DNA from: Escherichia phage LHE287
Sequence record: PP761450.1
Length of the DNA stretch: 64,000 nucleotides
Reading direction: 5' to 3' (one strand)
Shown: piece by piece, positions 2,388 to 64,000 of the stretch
Numbering within the stretch: the stretch's first letter is position 1
Layout of the letters: each line of letters opens with the position of its first letter
Translations under genes and position numbers: made by a program
Notes under the pieces: generated by a model
Told to the model about the DNA's origin: nothing
Database searches by the model: none
The model's input: only the letters and a program-made list of their open reading frames with translations

Positions 2388-2600
2388 ATGATCATTTCAG
2401 GTTACACCATCGATCTTTATTGTGAATGCTCAGATTGCAAGGCATGCAGTTGGGCTTGGGAAGAGCATCACCCCAAGTGCGGGTTCAAACAATACACTGG
2501 TGAGACTTGGGGTGAGTGTGTCAAACAGGCGCGAGTAGACGGCTGGCAAATCGGGCGCGACAGGCATACCTGCTACGCCCCTGGCCACAAAAGAAGTTAA
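2388..2600 (+). CDS. Small Cys-rich protein
   Basis: 70-aa ORF with six Cys and one His spaced like a zinc-binding module. Confidence 0.4.
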   Translation: MIISGYTIDLYCECSDCKACSWAWEEHHPKCGFKQYTGETWGECVKQARVDGWQIGRDRHTCYAPGHKRS

Positions 2601-3211
2601 GGTAATAGAAGTCCATCATCCCGCTCCGTTGGGGCGGGTTTAATCTCCTTCCGCATCTGTTCCTTCAGCACCCTGACACGCTCAGCATGTCGGCGATCTT
2701 GCATCTCCATATCCCGTTTCTTTTTCGACTTCAGCTCAAACTGTTTACGAACATCCGGATCTTCACCTGGAACAAGATGCTCTTCGGTCCAGATAATGAA
2801 CTTCCAGTTCTTCTTGGCACACAGTTCGCGGGTGGCCTCCCACTTGGCAGAGTTGACCAACCAGGTTCGCATCGCATTGTTGAATGTCGACTCCTTCATG
2901 TTCGGAGTCTTCTTCGGCTGCTTGATCTGGTCTTTGGGCTTGATCTCAATGAGGGTGACCTGTAGTTCCTCTTGCCCTTCACGGCGCGTCCAGACCTTGA
3001 GGTCCATGAAGTAACGATGGGTGCGCCCGTCGACTGGGGAAATGTAAGGGATTACGGTCTCCTCACTAGACCACTTCACTATCGCGGAGTTCATATCACA
3101 GAACTTGAAAGCCACCAACTCCAGCGAAGAGCGGAAGATGATGTTATTCACATTCCCCTGATACTTCTTGGGATTAACTGGGGTGTACTTCCCCTGAAGA
3201 TAGTTGCTCAT
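2597..3211 (-). CDS. Hypothetical protein, possibly head completion nuclease-like (gp4 family)
   Basis: 204-aa ORF; N-terminal YxG..NIIFRSSLE and HRYFMDL motifs resemble phage head-completion nuclease proteins; function uncertain. Confidence 0.5.
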   Translation of the reverse strand: MSNYLQGKYTPVNPKKYQGNVNNIIFRSSLELVAFKFCDMNSAIVKWSSEETVIPYISPVDGRTHRYFMDLKVWTRREGQEELQVTLIEIKPKDQIKQPKKTPNMKESTFNNAMRTWLVNSAKWEATRELCAKKNWKFIIWTEEHLVPGEDPDVRKQFELKSKKKRDMEMQDRRHAERVRVLKEQMRKEIKPAPTERDDGLLLP

Positions 3212-6192: not shown

Positions 6193-8139
6193 ATGGCACA
6201 GGAAGCAACGAACAATGATGTTGTCAAAGTTCTAGACAAGATCAAGGCGGAGATGATGCAGCGCAAACAACTCCGCGCTCAGAATGAAACCAACAAACAG
6301 CTTGACCGGATGAACAAGAATCTGGCCAAGCTGGAATCTGCCACCAAACAGGGCACCAAGGCCGAGTCCAAGCCATTTGAAATCCGTATCCCGACAGTCA
6401 ATGAGATCGTCATGGGATTCGCTCGCATGTCTCCGATCTTCACCCGCGACTTCAGCGTATGGATGAAGGATACTGTCGATGTGGGTAACGAAGGCAATCG
6501 GGAACTGGAGAATATCGCAGGCAAGATTGACCGCCTCGGTGAGATCACCCGCATGCCAACAGATGACACGTCCCTAGAGTATCTTAACCTGATCTCAGAC
6601 CAGCTGAAGTCTGCCAATGATGACACCCTCAAGCGCATGGACGAGCAGAGTGTGTCTCTGGTCCGCGTGGGATCATTCTTGAACATGATCGACGGAGTGA
6701 TGATCGAGGTTCGTGACGATGTTGCTGAACTGAAAAAGAACTCCGATGCCACCCTTACTCGCTTGTCTAGCATTGAAAACAAGATTGGGCGCACGGGCGG
6801 TCATATCGTTGGAGTGCTGACACGCATCTTTGATGAAGACCAGAAGTGGCGTGAGAAGGACGAGATGCGCCGTGGGGAAACCGACAAAGAAACGGGTGGT
6901 CATCCTCAGGCGGGTTCTGTTATACCCAAAGACGATGACCAGAAAGACGATTCCTCCGGTATCGGGGCTGCTGTGGCGGCCATGCTTGGCCTGAATGCAC
7001 TGAAGGGCTTCTTGCTCAAGCCGTTCAAGATCATCGGTGGTGTTGTCGGGACTTTCCTCGGCATGTTCTCCAAGCTGGGAGAAGGTATCACCAAACTTCT
7101 GGGTCCATTTGGGAAGGTGTTCAAGTTCCTGAAAGTCGGCCCACTGGCTCTCCTGTCTATGATCTGGGACTTCGGTAAAGGCTTCATTGATGCGAAGGAG
7201 ATCCTGGGTAAAGGTGCTGTCACGATAGTTGACCGAGTACGGGCGGGGATATCAGAACTGGTTGGTGGATTTGGTGATCTATTTGACTGGGTGTCCAAGA
7301 TCTTTGGCTTTGATACCGAGGCGGGTGAAACCCTGCGCAAATACACCCTCATGATCACTGAGGCTCCCGCTCGTTGGCTGAATGGTATTATCGACTGGAT
7401 TAGCAACGACTTGTTTGCAGGGATCGGGAGAGACACGTCTCTTACGGATATCCCTGGCAAGTTAGCAGACAACCTACAGTCCGAGTTGATAAAGCTGGTA
7501 GACTGGATCACAGGGGGTATCAGTAGTGTGATCGACGAGGGCATGGGTGTGGCCAACAAGGTCATTGACGAAATCAAGAAGGGATTTGCCGAAAATGTGA
7601 AGAAACCTTTCTTCAACATGCTGAACACAATCACCAATGCGATGTTCGATATCGTTGACAAGTTCGTCAGCATCATCCCTGACGCTCTGGGTGGACAGGC
7701 TGCGAAGCAGAAGATGGATGAGGCTCGCCAGTCTATGCTGATTGACACTGATGAGAATCCGTCTCCTAATGTGACAGAGACCCAGCAGCCACAGACGCCA
7801 GCACAACCGAACATCGATCCACAAACGCTGACTCCAATACCTTCTGGTGCGTCTTCGGATGACAAGAATATGACTAATGACCGCACCTCTCAGCTGAAAG
7901 CTGCGTATGGTTCTATCGGGGGTGGTACTCTGGGTGGGGCCATGCCATCACAAGGGAGGGCGCTGTCTAATATTGAGCAAGTACAAGGCGGCTATTCACC
8001 GCCTCCGGCCAGCGTCGTGATGCCAGTACAGCAGAATGTGGATGCTTCTAAGAGGATCAACACGACCAATAACTTCAACAGCTCATATCTTGAGCCTGAG
8101 AACAAAACAGATAATTCCCGCATCCTGTGGGAATGGTAA
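6193..8139 (+). CDS. Tape-measure-like / baseplate hub protein (gp29-like)
   Basis: 648 aa; coiled-coil-rich N-terminus, Gly-rich hydrophobic core (GIGAAVAAMLGLNALKG...GGVVGTFLGMF), Pro/Gln-rich C-terminus. Confidence 0.5.
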   Translation: MAQEATNNDVVKVLDKIKAEMMQRKQLRAQNETNKQLDRMNKNLAKLESATKQGTKAESKPFEIRIPTVNEIVMGFARMSPIFTRDFSVWMKDTVDVGNEGNRELENIAGKIDRLGEITRMPTDDTSLEYLNLISDQLKSANDDTLKRMDEQSVSLVRVGSFLNMIDGVMIEVRDDVAELKKNSDATLTRLSSIENKIGRTGGHIVGVLTRIFDEDQKWREKDEMRRGETDKETGGHPQAGSVIPKDDDQKDDSSGIGAAVAAMLGLNALKGFLLKPFKIIGGVVGTFLGMFSKLGEGITKLLGPFGKVFKFLKVGPLALLSMIWDFGKGFIDAKEILGKGAVTIVDRVRAGISELVGGFGDLFDWVSKIFGFDTEAGETLRKYTLMITEAPARWLNGIIDWISNDLFAGIGRDTSLTDIPGKLADNLQSELIKLVDWITGGISSVIDEGMGVANKVIDEIKKGFAENVKKPFFNMLNTITNAMFDIVDKFVSIIPDALGGQAAKQKMDEARQSMLIDTDENPSPNVTETQQPQTPAQPNIDPQTLTPIPSGASSDDKNMTNDRTSQLKAAYGSIGGGTLGGAMPSQGRALSNIEQVQGGYSPPPASVVMPVQQNVDASKRINTTNNFNSSYLEPENKTDNSRILWEW

Positions 8140-8799
8140 TCAGACTCCGTGAGCTTGTATTAGCTCACGGAGTCTCTGTTTTGAATATGTGGTATCCTCA
8201 TCCGGAACCACAGCATTCGTCTTCCTGAGCAAGAACGCCTCTGAGTTCCAGTAGATGTCATCACGCAGAATCGTATCGTATAGATGAATGAAACCAACGA
8301 TCTTGTTCAGACCGACAAGGAACCAAATCGGGAACTTCTTGATGATGATGTCTGTCAGCAACGGTGGATGTCCTGTACCCGTCCCCTTGATGTACTCAAT
8401 GAAGGTGCAGTTGCGCTCCCTTATGGCAGGGATCATCTCCCGCTCGAACTCCTCAAGGAAGTTATATGTGAAGTTCTCGTACAGCTTACGGTATTCATCA
8501 TAATTGGCCTGAGCCTGGCGTGTAAGCAATGTCGTCACCCAGGTCTTGGGTGATTTGATGAAGTTGGCAATGATGTAGTTCTCTACCACTTCACCCTGTG
8601 ATGACTCGAACCGACGGGCAAGGCGAGCAAACTGTTTGCACACGGCCTCCTTCGCCAAGAACGTCTCGAACTTGTAATTCATCGGCCCATACAAGCTGTA
8701 ATCGAAGTCCTTAGTGGTGAAGTGCAGCTTGATCGCCATGAAGACACAGTAAACGTTGAACGCCCGCTCGAACTCCATCTTCTGCCACTCTGTTAGCAT
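8140..8799 (-). CDS. 59: Helicase loader gp59-like
   Basis: 219 aa versus 217 in T4 gp59; similar hydrophobic/aromatic pattern incl. the W-N-x-E...LR C-terminal block. Confidence 0.6.
   Translation of the reverse strand: MLTEWQKMEFERAFNVYCVFMAIKLHFTTKDFDYSLYGPMNYKFETFLAKEAVCKQFARLARRFESSQGEVVENYIIANFIKSPKTWVTTLLTRQAQANYDEYRKLYENFTYNFLEEFEREMIPAIRERNCTFIEYIKGTGTGHPPLLTDIIIKKFPIWFLVGLNKIVGFIHLYDTILRDDIYWNSEAFLLRKTNAVVPDEDTTYSKQRLRELIQAHGV
8141..8178 (+). terminator. Intrinsic terminator hairpin (13-bp stem) after the tape-measure-like gene, embedded in the 3' end of convergent gp59
   Basis: AGACTCCGTGAGC / GCTCACGGAGTCT stem, then TTTTG. Confidence 0.5.
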
Positions 8800-9047
8800 T
8801 TGCGTTCCTCTTCTTTAATAAACTGCAATAACTCTTCCATCAGCCCTTTCTTCTTGATGAACTGTAACACCAGGATGAAGCGACGGAAGGAGCGGGGGAC
8901 AACACGATAACCCTTCGCCCAGTAGTTCACAACATTAGAACAATCCAATAAACGAGCCAGCCCAGATTGTGACACCCCGAGGCTCAGCAGAACCTTGTAC
9001 ATGTACTTCTTGTCATTTACCGGAAGCTCTTTCATTCTTAAACTCAT
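8793..9047 (-). CDS. Small HTH DNA-binding protein
   Basis: SQSGLARLLDCSNVVNYWAKG helix-turn-helix-like segment. Confidence 0.4.
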   Translation of the reverse strand: MSLRMKELPVNDKKYMYKVLLSLGVSQSGLARLLDCSNVVNYWAKGYRVVPRSFRRFILVLQFIKKKGLMEELLQFIKEEERKC

Positions 9048-15776: not shown

Positions 15777-16839
15777 GGTCCATTTGCTCCAGCATGTTAG
15801 CAGGCATAACAGTACCGTTAGAAACACCGAACATTTTCTTCACGTCATCGGCGAAGTTGACATTCTCCAGCAGCGGATACCAGAAATCATCATCCATCTG
15901 ACGCTTCTGATATTTCTTTTCCTTCTCAGGATCGAAACCACCCTTGGCTGTACGCACATACCAACCGGAAGACGGCATATCAACATAACCCAGAGCACGA
16001 GCGATCTCAAGCAGGCCGCTCCAGCGATCAATACCACCGTTGTACAGTACCGTCACAGGGAGCTTGGCTTTCTCTTTGACATGGCGACCTTTCATGATGC
16101 TTATGTTGAAGTTCCAACCCAGCAGATCTTTGTCTTCCTTCACCTGAGAACGGGTGATAAACCAGATCAAGTTGGATGATAAGAAGCCCTGCTTGCCGCC
16201 TTTGATGTTGGGCTCGGCATACTGGTTGCCGATCTCATCGTAATAGGAGTTGATCCAAACACACACGAGATTTTTGCTGTTGATTTCGGGAGTCATGACA
16301 CGCCAGAAGCTGTTAAGGGCACGGGCGCGGGTCATGTCTTGAGTGTCGTTCCCTTTGATCGCATCTTCAACTTCCTTGGTGGAGGGAAGTTGGCTGATAG
16401 AGTCGATGAAGATTATAACATGGTCGCCTTTCTTGACTTCCTGTAGGATCTGCAGCAAGCGGATCTTGGTCTGTTCAACGTTGTCGATCGGTACGTACAG
16501 GACGCGGTCCATGTCAATGCCCATAGAGGTCCAGTAATCGGCGTTGGCACCCTTTTCTGAGTCCGCAAAGACGCAGATAGCATCAGGGAACTTGTCCATG
16601 TACGCCTTGACGTCTACCAGACCGAACATCGTTTTGAAGGTACGGGAATCACCCACCATCATCTTGATACCGGAGATCAGACCGCCGTCAATACGCCCAG
16701 ACCATGCGATATCGATCAGGGGAATACCAGTAGAACAGATGATAGACGGTTCCAGAGCGTCGGATTTGGACAGCACTGAAGCCTGGTCATCGTGTTTCTT
16801 AGCAACCTTCAGCATGCGGTCCATTAATGAACTGGCCAT
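15754..16839 (-). CDS. uvsX: RecA-like recombinase UvsX
   Basis: 361 aa; RecA-fold motifs incl. GDSRTFKT Walker-A-like; N-terminus resembles T4 UvsX. Confidence 0.9.
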   Translation of the reverse strand: MASSLMDRMLKVAKKHDDQASVLSKSDALEPSIICSTGIPLIDIAWSGRIDGGLISGIKMMVGDSRTFKTMFGLVDVKAYMDKFPDAICVFADSEKGANADYWTSMGIDMDRVLYVPIDNVEQTKIRLLQILQEVKKGDHVIIFIDSISQLPSTKEVEDAIKGNDTQDMTRARALNSFWRVMTPEINSKNLVCVWINSYYDEIGNQYAEPNIKGGKQGFLSSNLIWFITRSQVKEDKDLLGWNFNISIMKGRHVKEKAKLPVTVLYNGGIDRWSGLLEIARALGYVDMPSSGWYVRTAKGGFDPEKEKKYQKRQMDDDFWYPLLENVNFADDVKKMFGVSNGTVMPANMLEQMDHVINTSE

Positions 16840-17366
16840 TTCACTTCCTCTTTATTGTTGATCGTCGTTAATAATTCTACACCCATAACCTTCTGGGACA
16901 AAATGTTAACCGCCTCTTGGATGCTCTTCAGGGACATTGTCTCAACAAGTGACGATGCGTCATTATGCCGGTCGGTTAGGTACATATTGCGCAGATTGTT
17001 GTAGTTCGTGCGGTTGATGCACGCAGTGTTCAGTGCTATATTCAGGATATACATCATCTGTTCAATGGTTACATCCTTTGGCATAGCGTGGATGTAATAG
17101 ATCGAGCCTTCAAAATAGACGTCTACCAGTTCATCTGGTATCTTGATGCCACCACCGGCATACTCTTCGATCATCCTGAACAGAGACTCTGGTTGCTCGC
17201 TGGCGATCTTATGCGTAACAGTCGCCGAAAGACCGTCGCCCGGTTTAACAGGCCTGGTGTATTCGGTAAAGAATACATTATGACCGCCGCCGATGATGTG
17301 CTCGGCGAAATTAGCGGATGCGTTCGCCGCGTTGTCTGCATGATATGAAACGACGACTGTAAACAT
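16824..17366 (-). CDS. Hypothetical protein
   Basis: 180-aa ORF in the nucleotide-metabolism block. Confidence 0.5.
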   Translation of the reverse strand: MFTVVVSYHADNAANASANFAEHIIGGGHNVFFTEYTRPVKPGDGLSATVTHKIASEQPESLFRMIEEYAGGGIKIPDELVDVYFEGSIYYIHAMPKDVTIEQMMYILNIALNTACINRTNYNNLRNMYLTDRHNDASSLVETMSLKSIQEAVNILSQKVMGVELLTTINNKEEVKWPVH

Positions 17367-17920
17367 TAGAACTCCAGGGTCAGAGGGGTTTCTGCGGACT
17401 TATCGTAACCCGCACCGCCAGCAGCACGCAGACGGTTGCGATCGTTCTTGCGTTTGTGTGCCAGTATGTAAGTCTCAATGTCGATCTCCATATAAGAACA
17501 CGCAGACGACAGGAAGAACATGAGAGTCTCAACGCAAGGATCGTTCATGAATTGCCCAAGGCGGTACGTAACATTGCGATGCCCTACAACACCCAAAGCA
17601 GATGGGGTGAATTCGCGATTACTAAGGACTTCAAATTCTTCTTCGATCTCACCTTTGGTGCGGTCCACAAGGATGAAGCACAACATGAAGTGTACCACGT
17701 CTACCAGTTCATAAACTGCGTTCGTATGGTCAAACCCGATGTCGTTGCCATAGACCTTCCAGTCACGGGTGGTTTCATCAAGGAACTCTGCCCACTCACG
17801 ATAGATAGAGTTGATGACTGCGTTCTGACTCCATACATTCTTCCACTCTTCCCCAAAGTAGGCCACGTTAGTGGCCTTTTGGAGTTCGAGCAGGCTTTTG
17901 ATATGCCCTGCTGTGATCAT
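17366..17920 (-). CDS. All-alpha dNTP pyrophosphatase (gp56 dCTPase/dUTPase-like)
   Basis: YELVDVVHFMLCF and YILAHKRKNDRNR blocks resemble T4 gp56 (ELVDIFHFVLNMF, YYLKNKENFARQDRGY). Confidence 0.55.
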   Translation of the reverse strand: MITAGHIKSLLELQKATNVAYFGEEWKNVWSQNAVINSIYREWAEFLDETTRDWKVYGNDIGFDHTNAVYELVDVVHFMLCFILVDRTKGEIEEEFEVLSNREFTPSALGVVGHRNVTYRLGQFMNDPCVETLMFFLSSACSYMEIDIETYILAHKRKNDRNRLRAAGGAGYDKSAETPLTLEF

Positions 17921-18486
17921 TTACGTTCTCCGTAGAATTTAACGAACGGTGCCCAACCATCAAATGGATTGAGGAATTCGTAGTCCACTTTCATTTGGTC
18001 AATGAAAGCCTCTATATCGTCCTCTATGATACCAGCACGGTCGGCCTTTGAAATACGGGTGATAGGACATTTCGTACTCAGCGCCCATTCATATTCCTGA
18101 GGGGTACGCAGATCGCTCACGATATAATGGACGTGGGGGTTCTGCTCTACCAGAGGAAGCTGGAAGCGCTTGAAGAATGCCAGGAACAGATCGGGTTGTA
18201 CGTAACGCAAGCCCGTATCGCTGCCTAGATGAAGCCAGATCTGCCGTGGAGTTAAGCCCTTGGGGTTATCAGGGTGCACGTAAGGAACGTCCTTCACGGC
18301 ATCCTCTACCTCCGCTGGCAGCCATGGATAGATGTAGTTGGCCACACGGCGCAGTTCATCTGAGAACGAAAGGCGCTGGATGTCCATATCACCCTGTAGT
18401 TGGTGATAGCTGATGAGGGACTCCAAACAGAAGTCCTTACCGGAGCGCTTGCGCCCCGTAAAGAATTCAAGATTTGGATACATCAT
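17917..18486 (-). CDS. Deoxynucleoside monophosphate kinase (gp1-like)
   Basis: N-terminal FTGRKRSGKDF resembles the dNMP-kinase P-loop (GVKRSGKDT in T4 gp1). Confidence 0.5.
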   Translation of the reverse strand: MMYPNLEFFTGRKRSGKDFCLESLISYHQLQGDMDIQRLSFSDELRRVANYIYPWLPAEVEDAVKDVPYVHPDNPKGLTPRQIWLHLGSDTGLRYVQPDLFLAFFKRFQLPLVEQNPHVHYIVSDLRTPQEYEWALSTKCPITRISKADRAGIIEDDIEAFIDQMKVDYEFLNPFDGWAPFVKFYGERK

Positions 18487-19529
18487 ACTACACCTTCCAG
18501 GAACTTAGGATCAATGATCTTGCGGTCAACCGGGGAATGGGTGAGCGCGATGTTCAAGCCATGATCCTGAATCAGGTCCAGGTTAATGAGCTTTTCGTTC
18601 AGTTTGCAGTGCAGACAGTACGCCATCTGTACAATCAGGCCACGATCAGCATCATATTCCTTCAGGTGGGCGACCACAGTTTCCCACGGGCTGCCGATAT
18701 CACAGTGATGAAGCACACCAGTGAACAGATTGCGGATATGGTTCTGGTTGGTCACGTTCGTGAAGTGAATCATGGAGTTGATGAACCCAGCTTCTACTTT
18801 GGTGTCCTTCGTGATCTTGCCAAGCTGCTTCTGGCTGACTTCATTGTTGTAGTAATGAAGATTGTTAGAGAATAGCTTGTACTGACCGACATCAACATCT
18901 AACACCTGAGCAATCACTTCCTGAAGAATAGAGAACTCAATGAAGTTGATTGAACTCATCCCCCACAGAACATCCTGTGAGCGGTTGATGACCGTCAGGT
19001 TCAGACGACCTTCAACGATGGAGAACAACAGAGCCAGATTACACACCATGTCCTTGGTCTTCGCTTCGCCGCTCTCGCTGAACTTCGCCAGACCAGCATC
19101 CGAATCTAGAGCCGGGTCATAGATGGTGAGGTACGCCTGGCGAGTGTTTGGGTTCTTGCGCAGGCGGTTGATAACGCTATCCAGCTGGCCATGGGCGTAC
19201 AGACGCGGACCATAAGCAGCTCGCCATGTTACCCCATCATCCGAAAAGTTAGCAGCGCGAGGCAATACGCGTGACAGGAACTTTATGTCGTTGCGACCTG
19301 ACAACACCCAGAAGGTCTCGCCGATGGCAGCGATAGCCGATGAGTTGCGACCTTCAACGGAGAGCCAGCGGTCACGGATGTCGGCGACGGTTATGGTCAC
19401 GCCATCAAGGAAGCGGGTGCTATCAGTATTGATTTCAGCATTACCAGGATCAGATTCGATCCCGAATTCACGGATAGCCAAGACAGCCTGCTTCAGCATG
19501 TCATTGTTGTTAATTGCTTTGATTTCCAT
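18483..19529 (-). CDS. Thymidylate-synthase-fold pyrimidine hydroxymethylase-like enzyme (dUMP/dCMP hydroxymethyltransferase candidate)
   Basis: Aligns by eye to ThyA: NPNTRQAYLTIYDP (cf. DPDSRRIIVSAWN), catalytic-Cys region MVCNLALLF (cf. APCHAFFQF), NRSQDVLWG...INF (cf. QRSCDVFLGLPFN), LHYY; about 85 aa C-terminal extension. Confidence 0.7.
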   Translation of the reverse strand: MEIKAINNNDMLKQAVLAIREFGIESDPGNAEINTDSTRFLDGVTITVADIRDRWLSVEGRNSSAIAAIGETFWVLSGRNDIKFLSRVLPRAANFSDDGVTWRAAYGPRLYAHGQLDSVINRLRKNPNTRQAYLTIYDPALDSDAGLAKFSESGEAKTKDMVCNLALLFSIVEGRLNLTVINRSQDVLWGMSSINFIEFSILQEVIAQVLDVDVGQYKLFSNNLHYYNNEVSQKQLGKITKDTKVEAGFINSMIHFTNVTNQNHIRNLFTGVLHHCDIGSPWETVVAHLKEYDADRGLIVQMAYCLHCKLNEKLINLDLIQDHGLNIALTHSPVDRKIIDPKFLEGVV

Positions 19530-40686: not shown

Positions 40687-43600
40687 TCAGATCTTAATCT
40701 GCATGTTGCCACCCAGGGACTGCTCGTACTCGCTGTATGCGCCTTCCCCGTAGTCTCGTGCCCACTGGTCAGACTGCTGGGCGCTATCCAGAGTCATCAG
40801 GTTTGGTTCAGTCGGGTTGTAACCCTTGGACTTCGCATCCCGGTACAGAGTCTGCAGGTACTGGTTGGCGCGGTCAATCTGAGCTTTGAACTCGCGATAT
40901 GCCCCTTCAGTTGTGTTGCGGCGGAAGGTGATATCCCAGTCCACGTTCAGAGTCTGACCATCACGGCTTACATAGATCTGCCAATCCAGGTCGCGACCTT
41001 TTGGTGCGTTGTCGCGGATGGAGTCGGCGTATGCCGCAAGGTCGTCCTTCGGATTGTGCGACGTGCTTTTCAGAAGTAGTGCATGACCCATACCACCGTT
41101 TGGCTGAAGAGACCATTTTCCTGTTTCTCTTCCCAGGCGTTCTATGTTGTTGAGTTGGTTTATCGACAATTCAGAAGAGTCAAATAATACCACATCACGT
41201 TTTTTGGGGGTTCTCACATAATGGGTGAGATCAATGTCGATCATCCGGTTTATAAATTCTACCACTTCAGCTTGTTTCTTTGGCAATGTGGTATTGATAT
41301 CCGGCTTGTTTGCCACTTTCTCTAGGCGTTTGTTTTCTGCGCTTATCATGGACAGCATAATTTGTGTAACTTTGCCGTCAGACAAGTTGTAATCATTCCA
41401 AATCACTTCACCTTTATCCGTGATGGTTATATCGTTCAAGAACACCTGGTTTGGGTTGTATGACTGACTTTTCAACTGTTGGAGGTTTCTGGAAAGATAT
41501 TCCATTCTTGATGATATTTCATCAATCATACTCTGGACCACATCTTTGTTCAAAGTAAGTTCATATGTCTTCGGATTGTTCAGGGTACGCCCTTTCTGAG
41601 AGACAATTGGGGTGAATGCAACTTTACCTTTGTCGTAGTAATAGGTCACGTTGGTTATCATAGAAGTACCGGCGTATTTTCCCGTTTCGGGGAAATTGAC
41701 ATCCCACCGAATGGACATACCGTTGACAGTCTCACCAAACACCATGGCGTTGCGCGGTATCTTCAAATTATCCAAAACGGATTGTTCCCCAGAATCAGTG
41801 TTCGGTGGGGTGATATTTTTCTGTTTCCACCAGGCAGTCGCCGCCTTCGTAAACTCTTTAGCCACACCAGACGGAATCGGTGGGAGTTTCAAGGTTTTGG
41901 CCAGGACACCCAAGTCTGAGCCGGACACTTCTGCAAAGGATCTTAATTTTGAGGAAGCACCGTAATACACACCATATACTGGAGTGCCAGAACTTGGTAT
42001 CACATTGATACCACCACCATACATACCTGATTTCTCACGGAACTCCAATACTGGTTGTCCATCAGGTGCCGTTTTGTTATACCAACCAACGACGACGTTC
42101 TCCAAGTTCTTTTCAACGTAGTCCGTTGCTGTTTGAACAAAATCATCAATAATCTTGGGGAATCGTTTTGGATCGCTGATGTCAACATTTTCTAACACAC
42201 CCACAGATGGCGGGAATGCTACCCATTTTTCTGCTGTTGCGTTCCAGGCATTAACAGACATCTGGACTGATTGATTACGTCGCGCAATTGACAGAGTCAG
42301 TTTGTAACGGTCTTTCACAAAGTTCTTGATGTATTCATCATCACCAAATAATTTGCCGCCAGCTGCCTTACTGTAGCCAATGTAATTCAGTAAATTGAGC
42401 CACTTGGATTTGGTAAGTTCACCGCTGTTGTCATTGCCGGTGTCATTGCTGGTGTCAACGTCCACCACCAGAATTATTTGAGAACCTTTCTTGAAAGTGT
42501 ACTGATCGTACATGCCTTTCTTCTGTTTGGTCATGGACGCACCGACCAAGTCTTGGTTGGTGAAGCCGCGCTTCATATTCCAAGATACCTCAGTCCCGTC
42601 TGGATATTTGTCAAAATTATAACCATAGAATACGGCTACTTCTTTCGAACCGCTTATCAGGCGGACGTAGTTTCCACGAATCGGGTCGCGCCCGCTCTTC
42701 AACTCCAGACCAGTGTCCGAGCTGTTGTACCACTCGCGGTTGACTTCGATTTCAGAAGAACCAGCCCCGGTTCCCACACCCCGAGCACCAATAGTGGTGT
42801 TGGAGTCAGCTGGCGCGGACTTCTGCTGAGAACCTTTCCAAAATTTTGTGGACGCCATGGTGAAATCATTCAGGATACTGATAGGGACTTGCGGTAATTT
42901 CAACTGACGAGCAATGAAATCAGCACTTTGCCCACGCACAGGTTTCTCATTCATGTATGCGCCAACATACACGCCCGGCTCATTGTAGTGGGGAGCGATA
43001 TTTGCCGTGTTCATGCGGCCTCTCTCCTTACCAGCCCATAACAACATGGGCTGATCCCCGTTTGAAGTTAATTTCCATCCGTTGGAATTATCAACAGAAG
43101 ATGAAGAACCAGCCCCGGTTCCCAAGTTTGTTTTTCTGGAATCTTCTACGTTTAGATTGAACAATTGTTTCCCAGATGAGTCGGAAGCAATAAATTCATA
43201 TTTCTTGCCACTGCGGGTACTCGTGCTGTTAACTTTGATGTTTCCAGTGTATCTTCCTGGATTCGTTTTTTGCATGAAATTGGTAATTGCAGCAGAAGGG
43301 GTTTTCATCCCAGAAATGATCCTAGCTGTCTCGGGATCAGTGAAAGACACTACGAGTTTGCGCCCATCCATCACTGTGATATCATTTCCAGACACCGAAA
43401 TATCCAAGTCTTCCATTTCAGAACGGAAATCAACACCAACAACAATGGTTTGACCAGTTCCACCCACAACGCCATCAACGCTGTTCTGAACCGGAACGTC
43501 ACCGACCTTGTCTGGATCATCCCAGGTGATACCCTGCATCTTCGGACCGTCAAATACCTGAGCCGGATCTTTACCCTTGCGCACAAGCCACACATAACCA

Positions 43601-44061
43601 CGGTCAGGGACAGGCGCGTAGGTCAGGTCCATGACATTCAGTTTCTGTTTCAGGCCGGACTGGCGGATGATCTTAGGAATCAGGGTCATACCGCGATCCA
43701 GCGCTTTCTTAGAGAAGTTGACAGCAAAGCCATCGATGGTCTTGCCCAGAGGAGTCGCCATGAATTGTTTGGTCGCTTCGATCATGGAAGCGATAACGCG
43801 CATTGGGTTCTTGAAGCGAGCGATGGCGTCAGGATAGACGGAGCCGCGCTTCTGGCCGATGAAAACCTGACGAACGCTCTTACCCAGCCCCTGAGGAGTA
43901 TAGAACTGAATGCGGTATTCCTTATCATCTTCGTCGACGAAGGTAAAGAACACATCGCCTGCGTTCTTCTTACCCATGGTCAGCTCATACGGAGCGGAGT
44001 TGAACGCTTCGTCTAACTGATCTCTTTCCTGCATGAACTGGAGGAAACTTAGCTTTGACAT
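40687..44061 (-). CDS. Large repeat-containing protein of unknown function (1124 aa)
   Basis: Uninterrupted ORF, ATG with AGGAGA RBS; internal duplicated segments (ARQLKLPQVPISILNDFTMASTKFWKG vs AKTLKLPPIPSGVAKEFTKAATAWWKQ; TGAGSS motifs); no recognisable catalytic motif. Confidence 0.7.
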   Translation of the reverse strand: MSKLSFLQFMQERDQLDEAFNSAPYELTMGKKNAGDVFFTFVDEDDKEYRIQFYTPQGLGKSVRQVFIGQKRGSVYPDAIARFKNPMRVIASMIEATKQFMATPLGKTIDGFAVNFSKKALDRGMTLIPKIIRQSGLKQKLNVMDLTYAPVPDRGYVWLVRKGKDPAQVFDGPKMQGITWDDPDKVGDVPVQNSVDGVVGGTGQTIVVGVDFRSEMEDLDISVSGNDITVMDGRKLVVSFTDPETARIISGMKTPSAAITNFMQKTNPGRYTGNIKVNSTSTRSGKKYEFIASDSSGKQLFNLNVEDSRKTNLGTGAGSSSSVDNSNGWKLTSNGDQPMLLWAGKERGRMNTANIAPHYNEPGVYVGAYMNEKPVRGQSADFIARQLKLPQVPISILNDFTMASTKFWKGSQQKSAPADSNTTIGARGVGTGAGSSEIEVNREWYNSSDTGLELKSGRDPIRGNYVRLISGSKEVAVFYGYNFDKYPDGTEVSWNMKRGFTNQDLVGASMTKQKKGMYDQYTFKKGSQIILVVDVDTSNDTGNDNSGELTKSKWLNLLNYIGYSKAAGGKLFGDDEYIKNFVKDRYKLTLSIARRNQSVQMSVNAWNATAEKWVAFPPSVGVLENVDISDPKRFPKIIDDFVQTATDYVEKNLENVVVGWYNKTAPDGQPVLEFREKSGMYGGGINVIPSSGTPVYGVYYGASSKLRSFAEVSGSDLGVLAKTLKLPPIPSGVAKEFTKAATAWWKQKNITPPNTDSGEQSVLDNLKIPRNAMVFGETVNGMSIRWDVNFPETGKYAGTSMITNVTYYYDKGKVAFTPIVSQKGRTLNNPKTYELTLNKDVVQSMIDEISSRMEYLSRNLQQLKSQSYNPNQVFLNDITITDKGEVIWNDYNLSDGKVTQIMLSMISAENKRLEKVANKPDINTTLPKKQAEVVEFINRMIDIDLTHYVRTPKKRDVVLFDSSELSINQLNNIERLGRETGKWSLQPNGGMGHALLLKSTSHNPKDDLAAYADSIRDNAPKGRDLDWQIYVSRDGQTLNVDWDITFRRNTTEGAYREFKAQIDRANQYLQTLYRDAKSKGYNPTEPNLMTLDSAQQSDQWARDYGEGAYSEYEQSLGGNMQIKI

Positions 44062-62389: not shown

Positions 62390-64000
62390 TCAGATTTGTG
62401 AGGCCAGTTCTGTCACCAGAGGAGCGGCACGAACACGCGCATCTTCCAGTGTTTGAGTATTGAAGAACTCGCCATCACGATACACCAGCTGGTGCTGGTT
62501 GTCGGCGTCTTGCACCTGATCAAAGGTGATACCGTCAACCAACACTAGTTTACCCTGAGAGTCTTTAATGACTTTAAGGAAACCACGCGCAGACTTTTTA
62601 GTCCCGCCTTTATCGGTCTTCGGCTCTTTGAAGATCTCACGGAATTCACCGTTCACTTTACCAGCCGTGGCTTTCACTGCTGTGCCAGTACTGTCACGGG
62701 TGTTCATCTGGTAGGTGTAGGAACCGATACCGAACACCACGTTGATGGAAGCGAAGTTCCGGTCAGCCAGACGGCTAAAGATCTGGTCTTCACGCGCCAG
62801 GGTGATAGAATCACCGTAGATCAGGCCGATGTGCTCATCCAACAGGAAGTGCCCAGTTTCAGTCTGGGTGCCACCAAAGATCTCCCACAGGCGCTGGATA
62901 GAGCCGACCGCTTCTGAACGGCTGATGATATTACGGTCATCTACCATCAGAGAGTTGATCGTGCCTTCGCCTGTGATCAGGTGATAGGTGTTCGTCTCTT
63001 CGATGTGGATAACTTCGGTGCTGCTAGACACGCCGCTGATGTTCAGCGTAGCGCGGTCTTTGAACCCCTCGATGCGGTAGCCGCCAACGATGTGTACAGG
63101 GTCGCCCGAGTCGGGGCGAATCACGACTTTACCATTGCGCGCCATGATAATGTCTTTCAGGCGAGGCAGATAGTCGTCGATGACCTGCCAGTAATCCCAC
63201 GCATCAGACACGATGCTGACGATGCCATCAGGATACACGTCCTGCACCAGGCGGCGGAAGGTTTCGAATTCGCCATCCTTCGTGCCCATACACATCACCG
63301 CATGTTCCGTTGCGGCAACCGACCCAGCAACGACATAGTCTTCGTCGATGTCTGCGCCATAATACTCTTCTACGAAGTCCAGGGCAGGGTTGGTATCGGT
63401 GCCTTTGAAGAACACCAGATGACCGGAACCGGAAGACGCGGCATCATGCCACCCGCTCATACCACGAAAGGAGAAGTCGTGGCCTTGGTAGTCGATGAAC
63501 CAATGGTCCGGTGATACTCCCGTAGCGAGGGCAGCTTTCACCATCAGTGCCTTGTAATGCAAAGCTATGGTGGCGTTCGTCATCGGCTTCCAGATCTCAG
63601 AGCTGAACACAGTCTCCAGATAGTTGGTCAGCCAGTAGAACTCCGGCAGGGTATTGAACATCACATACACCGGAACGCCATACGGGCACATGGTACCTTC
63701 AGGCAGCGCGCGGACTTCGATAGGCAGGTAGCCGAGGTCATGCAGGGCTTCAATATGCTCTGTGCCGACGCGGCCTGGACCCAGGACTTTGTTCATGCGA
63801 CGGGCATACTTCTTCAGCACCTTGGCCTTCGGGCGCTGGAAGAATGCTTCGTCAAACAGTTCGTGGAACCAGGTCATGAAGCCCTGGATGCCCCAGACCA
63901 CCACGCCGTTCTTCGGCAGGTGAGAGTTGAACAGTTTGTTAGAGCGCGGAGTTCCGTTGGAGAACACCAGCTCACTGCCTTCAGGGAACTGATAGATGTG
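62390..64000 (-). CDS. nadV: Nicotinamide phosphoribosyltransferase family protein (NadV/NAMPT-like), N-terminus beyond window end
   Basis: NAMPT-like blocks (EGTMCPYGVPVYVMFNTLPEFYWLTNYLET; GHDFSFRGMSG; RPDSGDP); the frame stays open upstream of the GTG at 63967 to the window edge, so the 5' end is truncated. Confidence 0.8.
   Translation of the reverse strand, partial: HIYQFPEGSELVFSNGTPRSNKLFNSHLPKNGVVVWGIQGFMTWFHELFDEAFFQRPKAKVLKKYARRMNKVLGPGRVGTEHIEALHDLGYLPIEVRALPEGTMCPYGVPVYVMFNTLPEFYWLTNYLETVFSSEIWKPMTNATIALHYKALMVKAALATGVSPDHWFIDYQGHDFSFRGMSGWHDAASSGSGHLVFFKGTDTNPALDFVEEYYGADIDEDYVVAGSVAATEHAVMCMGTKDGEFETFRRLVQDVYPDGIVSIVSDAWDYWQVIDDYLPRLKDIIMARNGKVVIRPDSGDPVHIVGGYRIEGFKDRATLNISGVSSSTEVIHIEETNTYHLITGEGTINSLMVDDRNIISRSEAVGSIQRLWEIFGGTQTETGHFLLDEHIGLIYGDSITLAREDQIFSRLADRNFASINVVFGIGSYTYQMNTRDSTGTAVKATAGKVNGEFREIFKEPKTDKGGTKKSARGFLKVIKDSQGKLVLVDGITFDQVQDADNQHQLVYRDGEFFNTQTLEDARVRAAPLVTELASQI

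Follow-up and report, generated by a model that had tools for sequence, protein, structure and literature searches.

A thymidylate synthase-like gene of an AG3-like Ackermannviridae phage probably encodes a folate-dependent dUMP 5-hydroxymethyltransferase

The stretch of DNA analysed here, referred to as the window, comprises 64,000 nucleotides of Escherichia phage LHE287 (sequence record PP761450.1). On its minus strand, an open reading frame with an ATG start, preceded by GGGAG as ribosome-binding site, encodes a protein of 348 aa related to thymidylate synthase (TS). The gene is part of a same-strand run of overlapping genes which code, in order, for a 5-hydroxymethyluracil DNA kinase (5-HMUDK), the TS-like protein, a dNMP kinase, a dUTPase_2-type pyrophosphohydrolase and an ACT_phage protein, and which is followed by uvsX. 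The features of the locus are:

20207..20235, minus strand: terminator-like hairpin with a 13-bp stem, shortly before the 5-HMUDK gene (consensus match only)
19529..20188, minus strand: 5-HMUDK (Pfam PF18748, E 3.6e-109; 88% identity to ViI gp67)
18483..19529, minus strand: gene of the probable dUMP hydroxymethylase, a TS-superfamily enzyme, 348 aa plus stop (ORF; PF00303; PHROG 3676 over the full length)
18822..19529, minus strand: TS-fold catalytic core, residues 1-236
18486..18821, minus strand: linker and MilA-like five-helix C-terminal domain, residues 237-348
17917..18486, minus strand: dNMP kinase, presumed 5-hmdUMP kinase (PHROG 139, E 4.9e-47; ViI counterpart annotated "dnk")
17366..17920, minus strand: dUTPase_2/MazG-type NTP pyrophosphohydrolase, presumed dUTPase/dTTPase (PF08761, E 6.2e-09; PHROG 173, E 2.3e-40)
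16824..17366, minus strand: ACT_phage-domain protein, closing the run of overlapping genes (PF24021, E 9.8e-79)

The TS-like gene overlaps its neighbours at both ends: its ATG with the TGA of the upstream 5-HMUDK gene, and its TGA with the ATG of the dNMP kinase gene downstream (ATGA). It is translationally coupled to the genes for 5-HMUDK, the dNMP kinase and the dUTPase-like protein. A dTTPase role was predicted for the latter (PMC3184105) and has been demonstrated for an analogous phage enzyme (PMC13458397). The ACT_phage-domain gene (16824-17366, minus strand) shares a 1-nt overlap with the dUTPase-like gene and is translationally coupled to it. ACT domains are usually small-ligand binding modules. 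The hairpin at 20207-20235 separates the 5-HMUDK gene from the 278-aa gene upstream and, judged by its sequence, possibly marks the boundary or start of a transcription unit. As sigma-70-like sites were no more frequent in a promoter scan than in shuffled sequence, no promoter is claimed.

Over 4 kb, the region matches Escherichia phages YX22, RPN242 and A221 at 98% DNA identity; for Shigella phage AG3 and Salmonella phage SKML-39 the value is ~91%. The gene order is the same in Shigella phage ChubbyThor, an AG3 relative of the genus Agtrevirus. Based on these identities and the Agtrevirus relative, the window is attributed to an AG3-like Ackermannviridae genome. Elsewhere it carries T4-like replication and nucleotide-metabolism genes (DNA ligase, gp41-type helicase, UvsX, gp32, ribonucleotide reductase, RNase H and NAMPT). 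The NAPRTase/NAMPT-family gene is found at 62390-63967 (minus strand), and its presence varies among Agtrevirus phages (PMC11721090). A protein with a TnsA-like endonuclease N-terminal domain is encoded at 2597-3211 (minus strand), and two long reading frames, 40687-44061 (minus strand, 1124 aa) and 6193-8139 (plus strand, 648 aa), are without a Pfam match.

Membership of the TS/pyrimidine hydroxymethylase superfamily is apparent from a profile score above threshold in combination with the TS fold, a catalytic Cys, an Arg-Ser-x-Asp motif and a His/Tyr pair. The Pfam profile Thymidylat_synt (PF00303) matched with 59.9 bits at a cut-off of 24.3 (E 2.9e-16), albeit over residues 67-235 only, i.e. 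profile positions 54-219 of 266. PHROG 3676 matched over the whole protein (E 4.6e-183), and an AlphaFold2 model derived from an alignment of 34 sequences reached a mean pLDDT of 93.1 and a pTM of 0.93. The PF00303 match, the retained catalytic Cys, Arg, Asp, Asn, His and Tyr residues, and the annotation "thymidylate synthase" in most related phage records would all be in agreement with a canonical TS making dTMP. Conversely, the NCBIfam TS equivalog models yielded 59 bits at best, where a cut-off of 327 applies. As the scores are this far under the cut-offs, which range from 108 to 427 bits, the protein does not qualify as a bona fide TS.

Residue equivalences were derived from a 9-sequence alignment, including E. 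coli ThyA, T4 gp42, YuA gp17 and CP-51 gp100, and from HMMER pairwise alignments. These were preferred for all cross-family equivalences because, near Tyr106 and Asn195, a 125-sequence MAFFT alignment put E. coli and T4 residues out of register by one to a few columns. Residue conservation was counted across 120 retrieved homologs. The key residues map to the following positions:

19050..19052, minus strand: Asp160 codon (alignment; codon checked)
19038..19046, minus strand: V162-C163-N164, catalytic nucleophile motif (alignments; codons checked)
18972..18983, minus strand: R183-S184-Q185-D186, phosphate-/folate-binding motif, equivalent to E. coli R166, S167 and D169 (alignments)
18945..18947, minus strand: Asn195 codon, pyrimidine-selecting residue, equivalent to E. 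coli N177 and T4 D179 (alignments)

A first-pass annotation made from the sequence had noted a VCN motif instead of PCH, an RSxD motif, an Asn-containing loop and a His-Tyr pair in 18483-19529, and all of these are present as described. Cys163 corresponds to E. coli C146, embedded in V-C-N rather than the P-C-H of TS; position 163 is Cys in 120/120 homologs and position 164 Asn in 112/120. The alignment further equates H225/Y227 with E. coli H207/Y209, E71 with E58, and Y106 with Y94. Asp160, three residues before Cys163, takes the place of E. coli L143 and T4 Asp145. Together with Cys163, Asp186 and Asn195, it is invariant (each 120/120).

At the N177-equivalent position, Asn selects uracil and Asp selects cytosine (PMC13326640, PMC6400193). 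As this position is held by Asn195, the substrate base is assigned to uracil, and the proposal of dUMP that had been based on the retained Asn withstood proper alignment. The L143-equivalent position is hydrophobic in methyl-forming enzymes and Asp or Glu in hydroxymethylases, where the acidic residue activates the water molecule that is added to the exocyclic methylene; accordingly, T4 D145N is inactive (PMC6400193, PMC13326640). The presence of Asp160 at this site therefore argues for hydroxymethylation, and its strict conservation in place of Leu143 is difficult to reconcile with a canonical TS. Regarding the sugar, Lys and Ala at the MilA positions K133 and A176 favour ribose whereas Arg and Ser favour deoxyribose (PMC5175136). 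HMMER pairwise alignment places Arg130 and Ser184 at these positions, indicative of a deoxyribose substrate. The Ser/Thr found two residues before the conserved Tyr in the T4 dCH hydroxymethylase signature has no equivalent in the protein, where Ala104 precedes Tyr106; among the homologs, this position is Ala or Gly in 110/120 and Ser in 2/120. Since the Ser-x-Tyr signature was derived for dCMP hydroxymethylases, and since the T4 S94A mutant retains ~25% activity (PMC6400193), it may not define the dUMP branch.

The same residues bear on two other assignments. A cytosine-nucleotide hydroxymethylase, acting on dCMP like T4 gp42 or on CMP like MilA, is suggested by MilA, which is nearest to the protein among solved structures and also by sequence among PDB entries, and which shares the D-x-x-C motif and a helical C-terminal domain. 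However, the specificity residue is Asn195 rather than Asp in every homolog, the ribose determinants are Arg130/Ser184 rather than the Lys/Ala of MilA (PMC5175136), the target of the neighbouring kinase is hydroxymethyl-uracil, and no hmdC substitution for cytosine is found in CBA120 (PMC3184105), which renders this assignment highly improbable. The second candidate is a flavin-dependent TS-fold pyrimidine C5-hydroxylase resembling the 5-hydroxy-dCMP synthases of RB69 and DLP3 (RB69 gp48, DLP3 gp80, PDB 9iqc). Such enzymes are marked by Asn at the position of E. coli D169 (PMC13326640). This diagnostic exchange is absent from the LHE287 protein and from all 120 homologs, and the retention of Asp186 points to folate chemistry instead. 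As the specificity residue is moreover Asn, not Asp, and the scanned window ORFs of at least 130 aa include no arabinosyl- or glycosyl-transferase, the probability of a flavin-dependent hydroxylase is considered negligible.

Relative to E. coli ThyA, the protein has 84 additional aa. The stretch after its H-x-Y motif comprises 121 residues; the corresponding stretches of E. coli TS (55 residues) and of the T4 dCMP hydroxymethylase gp42 (28 residues) are shorter, by ~66 aa and ~93 aa, respectively. The additional length is real and not an alignment artefact. The ~85-aa C-terminal extension described in the first-pass annotation is correct in this regard, but the additional residues are not appended past the end of a TS. 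In the AlphaFold2 model, the TS C-terminal segment has no counterpart; its place is taken by a linker (~237-261) leading into a domain of helices (262-277, 282-291, 298-310, 323-331 and 335-338). As the PF00303 match ends at profile position 219 of 266 and the C-terminus aligns with MilA rather than TS, the tail that seals the active site of TS is absent. What the model shows instead is a five-helix C-terminal domain of the MilA type. The same full-length architecture is observed in predicted viral structures from Aeromonas phage phiA8-29 and Maribacter phage Colly_1. With at least 93 residues after H-x-Y in 120/120 homologs (median 137), the long C-terminus is a family hallmark and not specific to this phage. 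A comparison of the C-terminal domain of the Ackermannviridae group with those of other long homologs by hhalign reached a P of only 0.057, and the equivalence of the domains is therefore based on structure and common length. A subgroup of homologs (P0046, P0051, P0065, P0078 and P0084) is longer still, at 470-590 aa with 250-380 residues after H-x-Y; a Pfam search of these for a fused known domain returned nothing outside the TS core.

In MilA, the five extra C-terminal helices are located away from the active site, and truncation resulted in insoluble protein (PMC5175136). By analogy, the five-helix domain of the LHE287 protein is most likely the same accessory domain, serving folding or stability and possibly protein-protein contacts. 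If placed as reported for MilA, it would add nothing to the active site. The earlier argument that an extended C-terminus speaks for a hydroxymethylase therefore holds in its direction, as the sealing TS tail is indeed lost, but not for the extension itself, whose equivalent in MilA is remote from the active site (PMC5175136). More speculative roles can be envisaged. The MilA-like domain could be a docking module for the dNMP kinase, the dUTPase-like protein, 5-HMUDK or the replisome, in a T4-style dNTP-synthesising complex, or a surface recognised by a host sensor. The latter is proposed because the SP10/SBSphiC dUMP hydroxymethylase, which is structurally MilA-like, reportedly triggers Avs type I (preprint 10.1101/2025.06.06.658234). 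Alternatively, the enzyme could partition between hydration and reduction and thereby also supply the ~60% of ordinary T present in ViI-type DNA. Even taken jointly, these proposals are unlikely.

Comparison with characterised enzymes helps to place the protein. In fold and in most catalytic residues (C146, R166, S167, D169, N177, H207, Y209, E58 and Y94), it agrees with E. coli ThyA. The two differ in Leu143 versus Asp160, in P-C-H versus V-C-N, and in a 55-residue C-terminus with sealing tail versus 121 residues of linker and helical domain. Where ThyA forms dTMP and dihydrofolate, the LHE287 enzyme is expected to form 5-hmdUMP and tetrahydrofolate. The chemistry proposed here is that of T4 gp42 (PDB 1b5e, 6l18), in which Asp145 corresponds to Asp160 and which likewise lacks the TS C-terminal tail (PMC6400193). 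MilA, the CMP 5-hydroxymethylase of Streptomyces rimofaciens (PDB 5jnh, 5b6d), is only ~20% identical. It combines an Asp base selector (cytosine) with Lys133/Ala176 (ribose), as opposed to Asn195 (uracil) with Arg130/Ser184 (deoxyribose), and functions in antibiotic biosynthesis, not DNA modification. A further group is formed by phage enzymes from hmdU or hypermodified-T phages that are annotated as dUMP hydroxymethylases or grouped with them: the SPO1 gp29 type (compared via CP-51 gp100), YuA gp17, and those of SP10 and phiW-14. The CP-51 gp100/YuA gp17 group resembles the LHE287 protein in its D-x-x-C-N motif, in Asn at the N177 position and in the length of the C-terminus, with 134-162 residues after H-x-Y. 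Identity amounts to 27-32% and is confined to the core, and P-C-N is found where LHE287 has V-C-N.

The closest known system is that of phage ViI, whose Vi01_060c (YP_004327431) is an orthologue with 77% identity over 341 residues; CBA120 orf073 and AG3 orf00066 are orthologues as well. The ViI gene order (uvsX, ACT-like gene, dUTPase, dnk, TS-like gene, 5-HMUDK) is identical. No substantive difference to the ViI-like phages was noted, the window carrying an Agtrevirus-type allele, and tblastn revealed one TS-like gene per Ackermannviridae genome. The kinase next to the TS-like gene is 88% identical to ViI gp67 (YP_004327432), an assayed 5-hmdU DNA kinase (PMC8989533). The family of this validated enzyme (19529-20188, minus strand, in the window; Vi01_061c, 8204-8866 of the retrieved stretch L006, in ViI) is labelled "terminase small subunit" by PHROG 800 and RefSeq, which looks like a propagated misannotation. 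A kinase-like protein in the YuA gp17 neighbourhood, gp13, carries the same kind of label in RefSeq ("terminase small subunit / putative kinase") as the validated ViI 5-HMUDK.

Taken together, the combination of Asn at the N177 position, an acidic residue three positions ahead of Cys163 and the missing TS tail is that of a dUMP hydroxymethylase. The genomic context agrees, with genes for a 5-hmdU DNA kinase, a dNMP kinase and a dUTPase/dTTPase nearby, an association reported previously (PMC5889632). The gene is accordingly assigned to a folate-dependent dUMP 5-hydroxymethyltransferase of an AG3-like Ackermannviridae phage, with an estimated probability of about 0.9 that includes the activity and product we infer for it. 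The analysis itself establishes the fold, residue code, synteny and orthology of the protein. The first-pass annotation had arrived at a hydroxymethylase-type reaction without considering Asp160. This conclusion is now supported by the discriminating residue itself, by the genomic context, and by the literature on ViI and CBA120.

In the proposed mechanism, Cys163 would attack C6 of dUMP, upon which the methylene group of 5,10-methylene-tetrahydrofolate would be transferred to C5. Elimination of tetrahydrofolate would then leave an exocyclic methylene. In a true TS, this intermediate is reduced by hydride transfer, a step that requires a sealed hydrophobic site, built from Leu143 and the C-terminal tail. 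In the LHE287 enzyme, a water molecule activated by Asp160 would add instead, giving 5-hmdUMP and tetrahydrofolate. The phage polymerase would incorporate 5-hmdU into DNA, where the adjacent 5-HMUDK would phosphorylate it for conversion into 5-(2-aminoethoxy)methyl-dU by enzymes encoded outside the window. A scan of all window ORFs of at least 130 aa for such later enzymes (aGPT-Pplase serine transferase, PLP decarboxylase and a second 5-HMUDK) found none; in ViI, the later-pathway genes are gp226, gp243 and gp247, distant from gp67.

The assignment of the orthologous gene as a dUMP hydroxymethyltransferase is already published. Kutter et al. 2011 reported that 3H-thymidine is not incorporated by CBA120 and that the CBA120 "TS" clusters with the enzymes of hmdU phages (PMC3184105). 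Lee et al. 2018 labelled the gene, located beside 5-HMUDK, "dU hmt" (PMC5889632). In the DNA of ViI and CBA120, ~40% of T is replaced by 5-(2-aminoethoxy)methyl-dU (5-NeOmdU), which is built on 5-hmdU (PMC5889632, PMC11721090). The later steps of the pathway were reconstituted in 2021; this in vitro work on ViI began from DNA already containing 5-hmdU (PMC8989533), and a search of the literature revealed no Ackermannviridae orthologue that had been assayed directly. The unmodified fraction of thymine in ViI-type DNA (PMC5889632) is in line with a canonical TS, and as ~60% of the thymines in ViI are ordinary T, some dTMP-forming activity is possible on sequence grounds. Still, the tail by which a TS closes its site for hydride transfer is missing from the protein (PMC6400193), and a canonical TS would leave unexplained the failure of CBA120 to incorporate labelled thymidine (PMC3184105) and would not provide the 5-hmdU in DNA that the adjoining kinase requires. 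A canonical TS is hence regarded as improbable.

The dUMP hydroxymethyltransferase opens the thymidine-hypermodification pathway. This pathway renders Ackermannviridae DNA resistant to many restriction enzymes and is of relevance for phage therapy and for the enzymatic synthesis of modified DNA. The "thymidylate synthase" label nevertheless persists in most database records of the gene; at least one relative (P0023) is already annotated "deoxyuridylate hydroxymethyltransferase". The gain of the present analysis is the confirmation of a reading made from sequence and the residue-level criteria supplied for it.

Among the bacterial homologs, two are found in different contexts. On a Paenarthrobacter chromosome (L007/L008, 7582-12932), the long-form homolog P0064 (8001-9086) keeps the residue code for uracil and hydroxymethylation. 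It directly follows a Nuc_deoxyrib_tr gene of the MilB-like N-glycosidase family and is followed by genes for an MFS transporter and two ATP-grasp proteins. By gene content, this locus looks like a MilA/MilB-type natural-product cluster acting on a uracil nucleotide. The homolog P0082 (8001-9011 in L009, 1-11617) is located in a defence island, in the order JetABCD (Wadjet), Metallophos phosphoesterase, TS-like gene, thymidylate-kinase-like gene and a small ORF, then genes for an N6 methyltransferase, an ORC/CDC6-like protein and PRTase-CE. Judged by this arrangement, the locus could encode a host system that makes a modified nucleotide.
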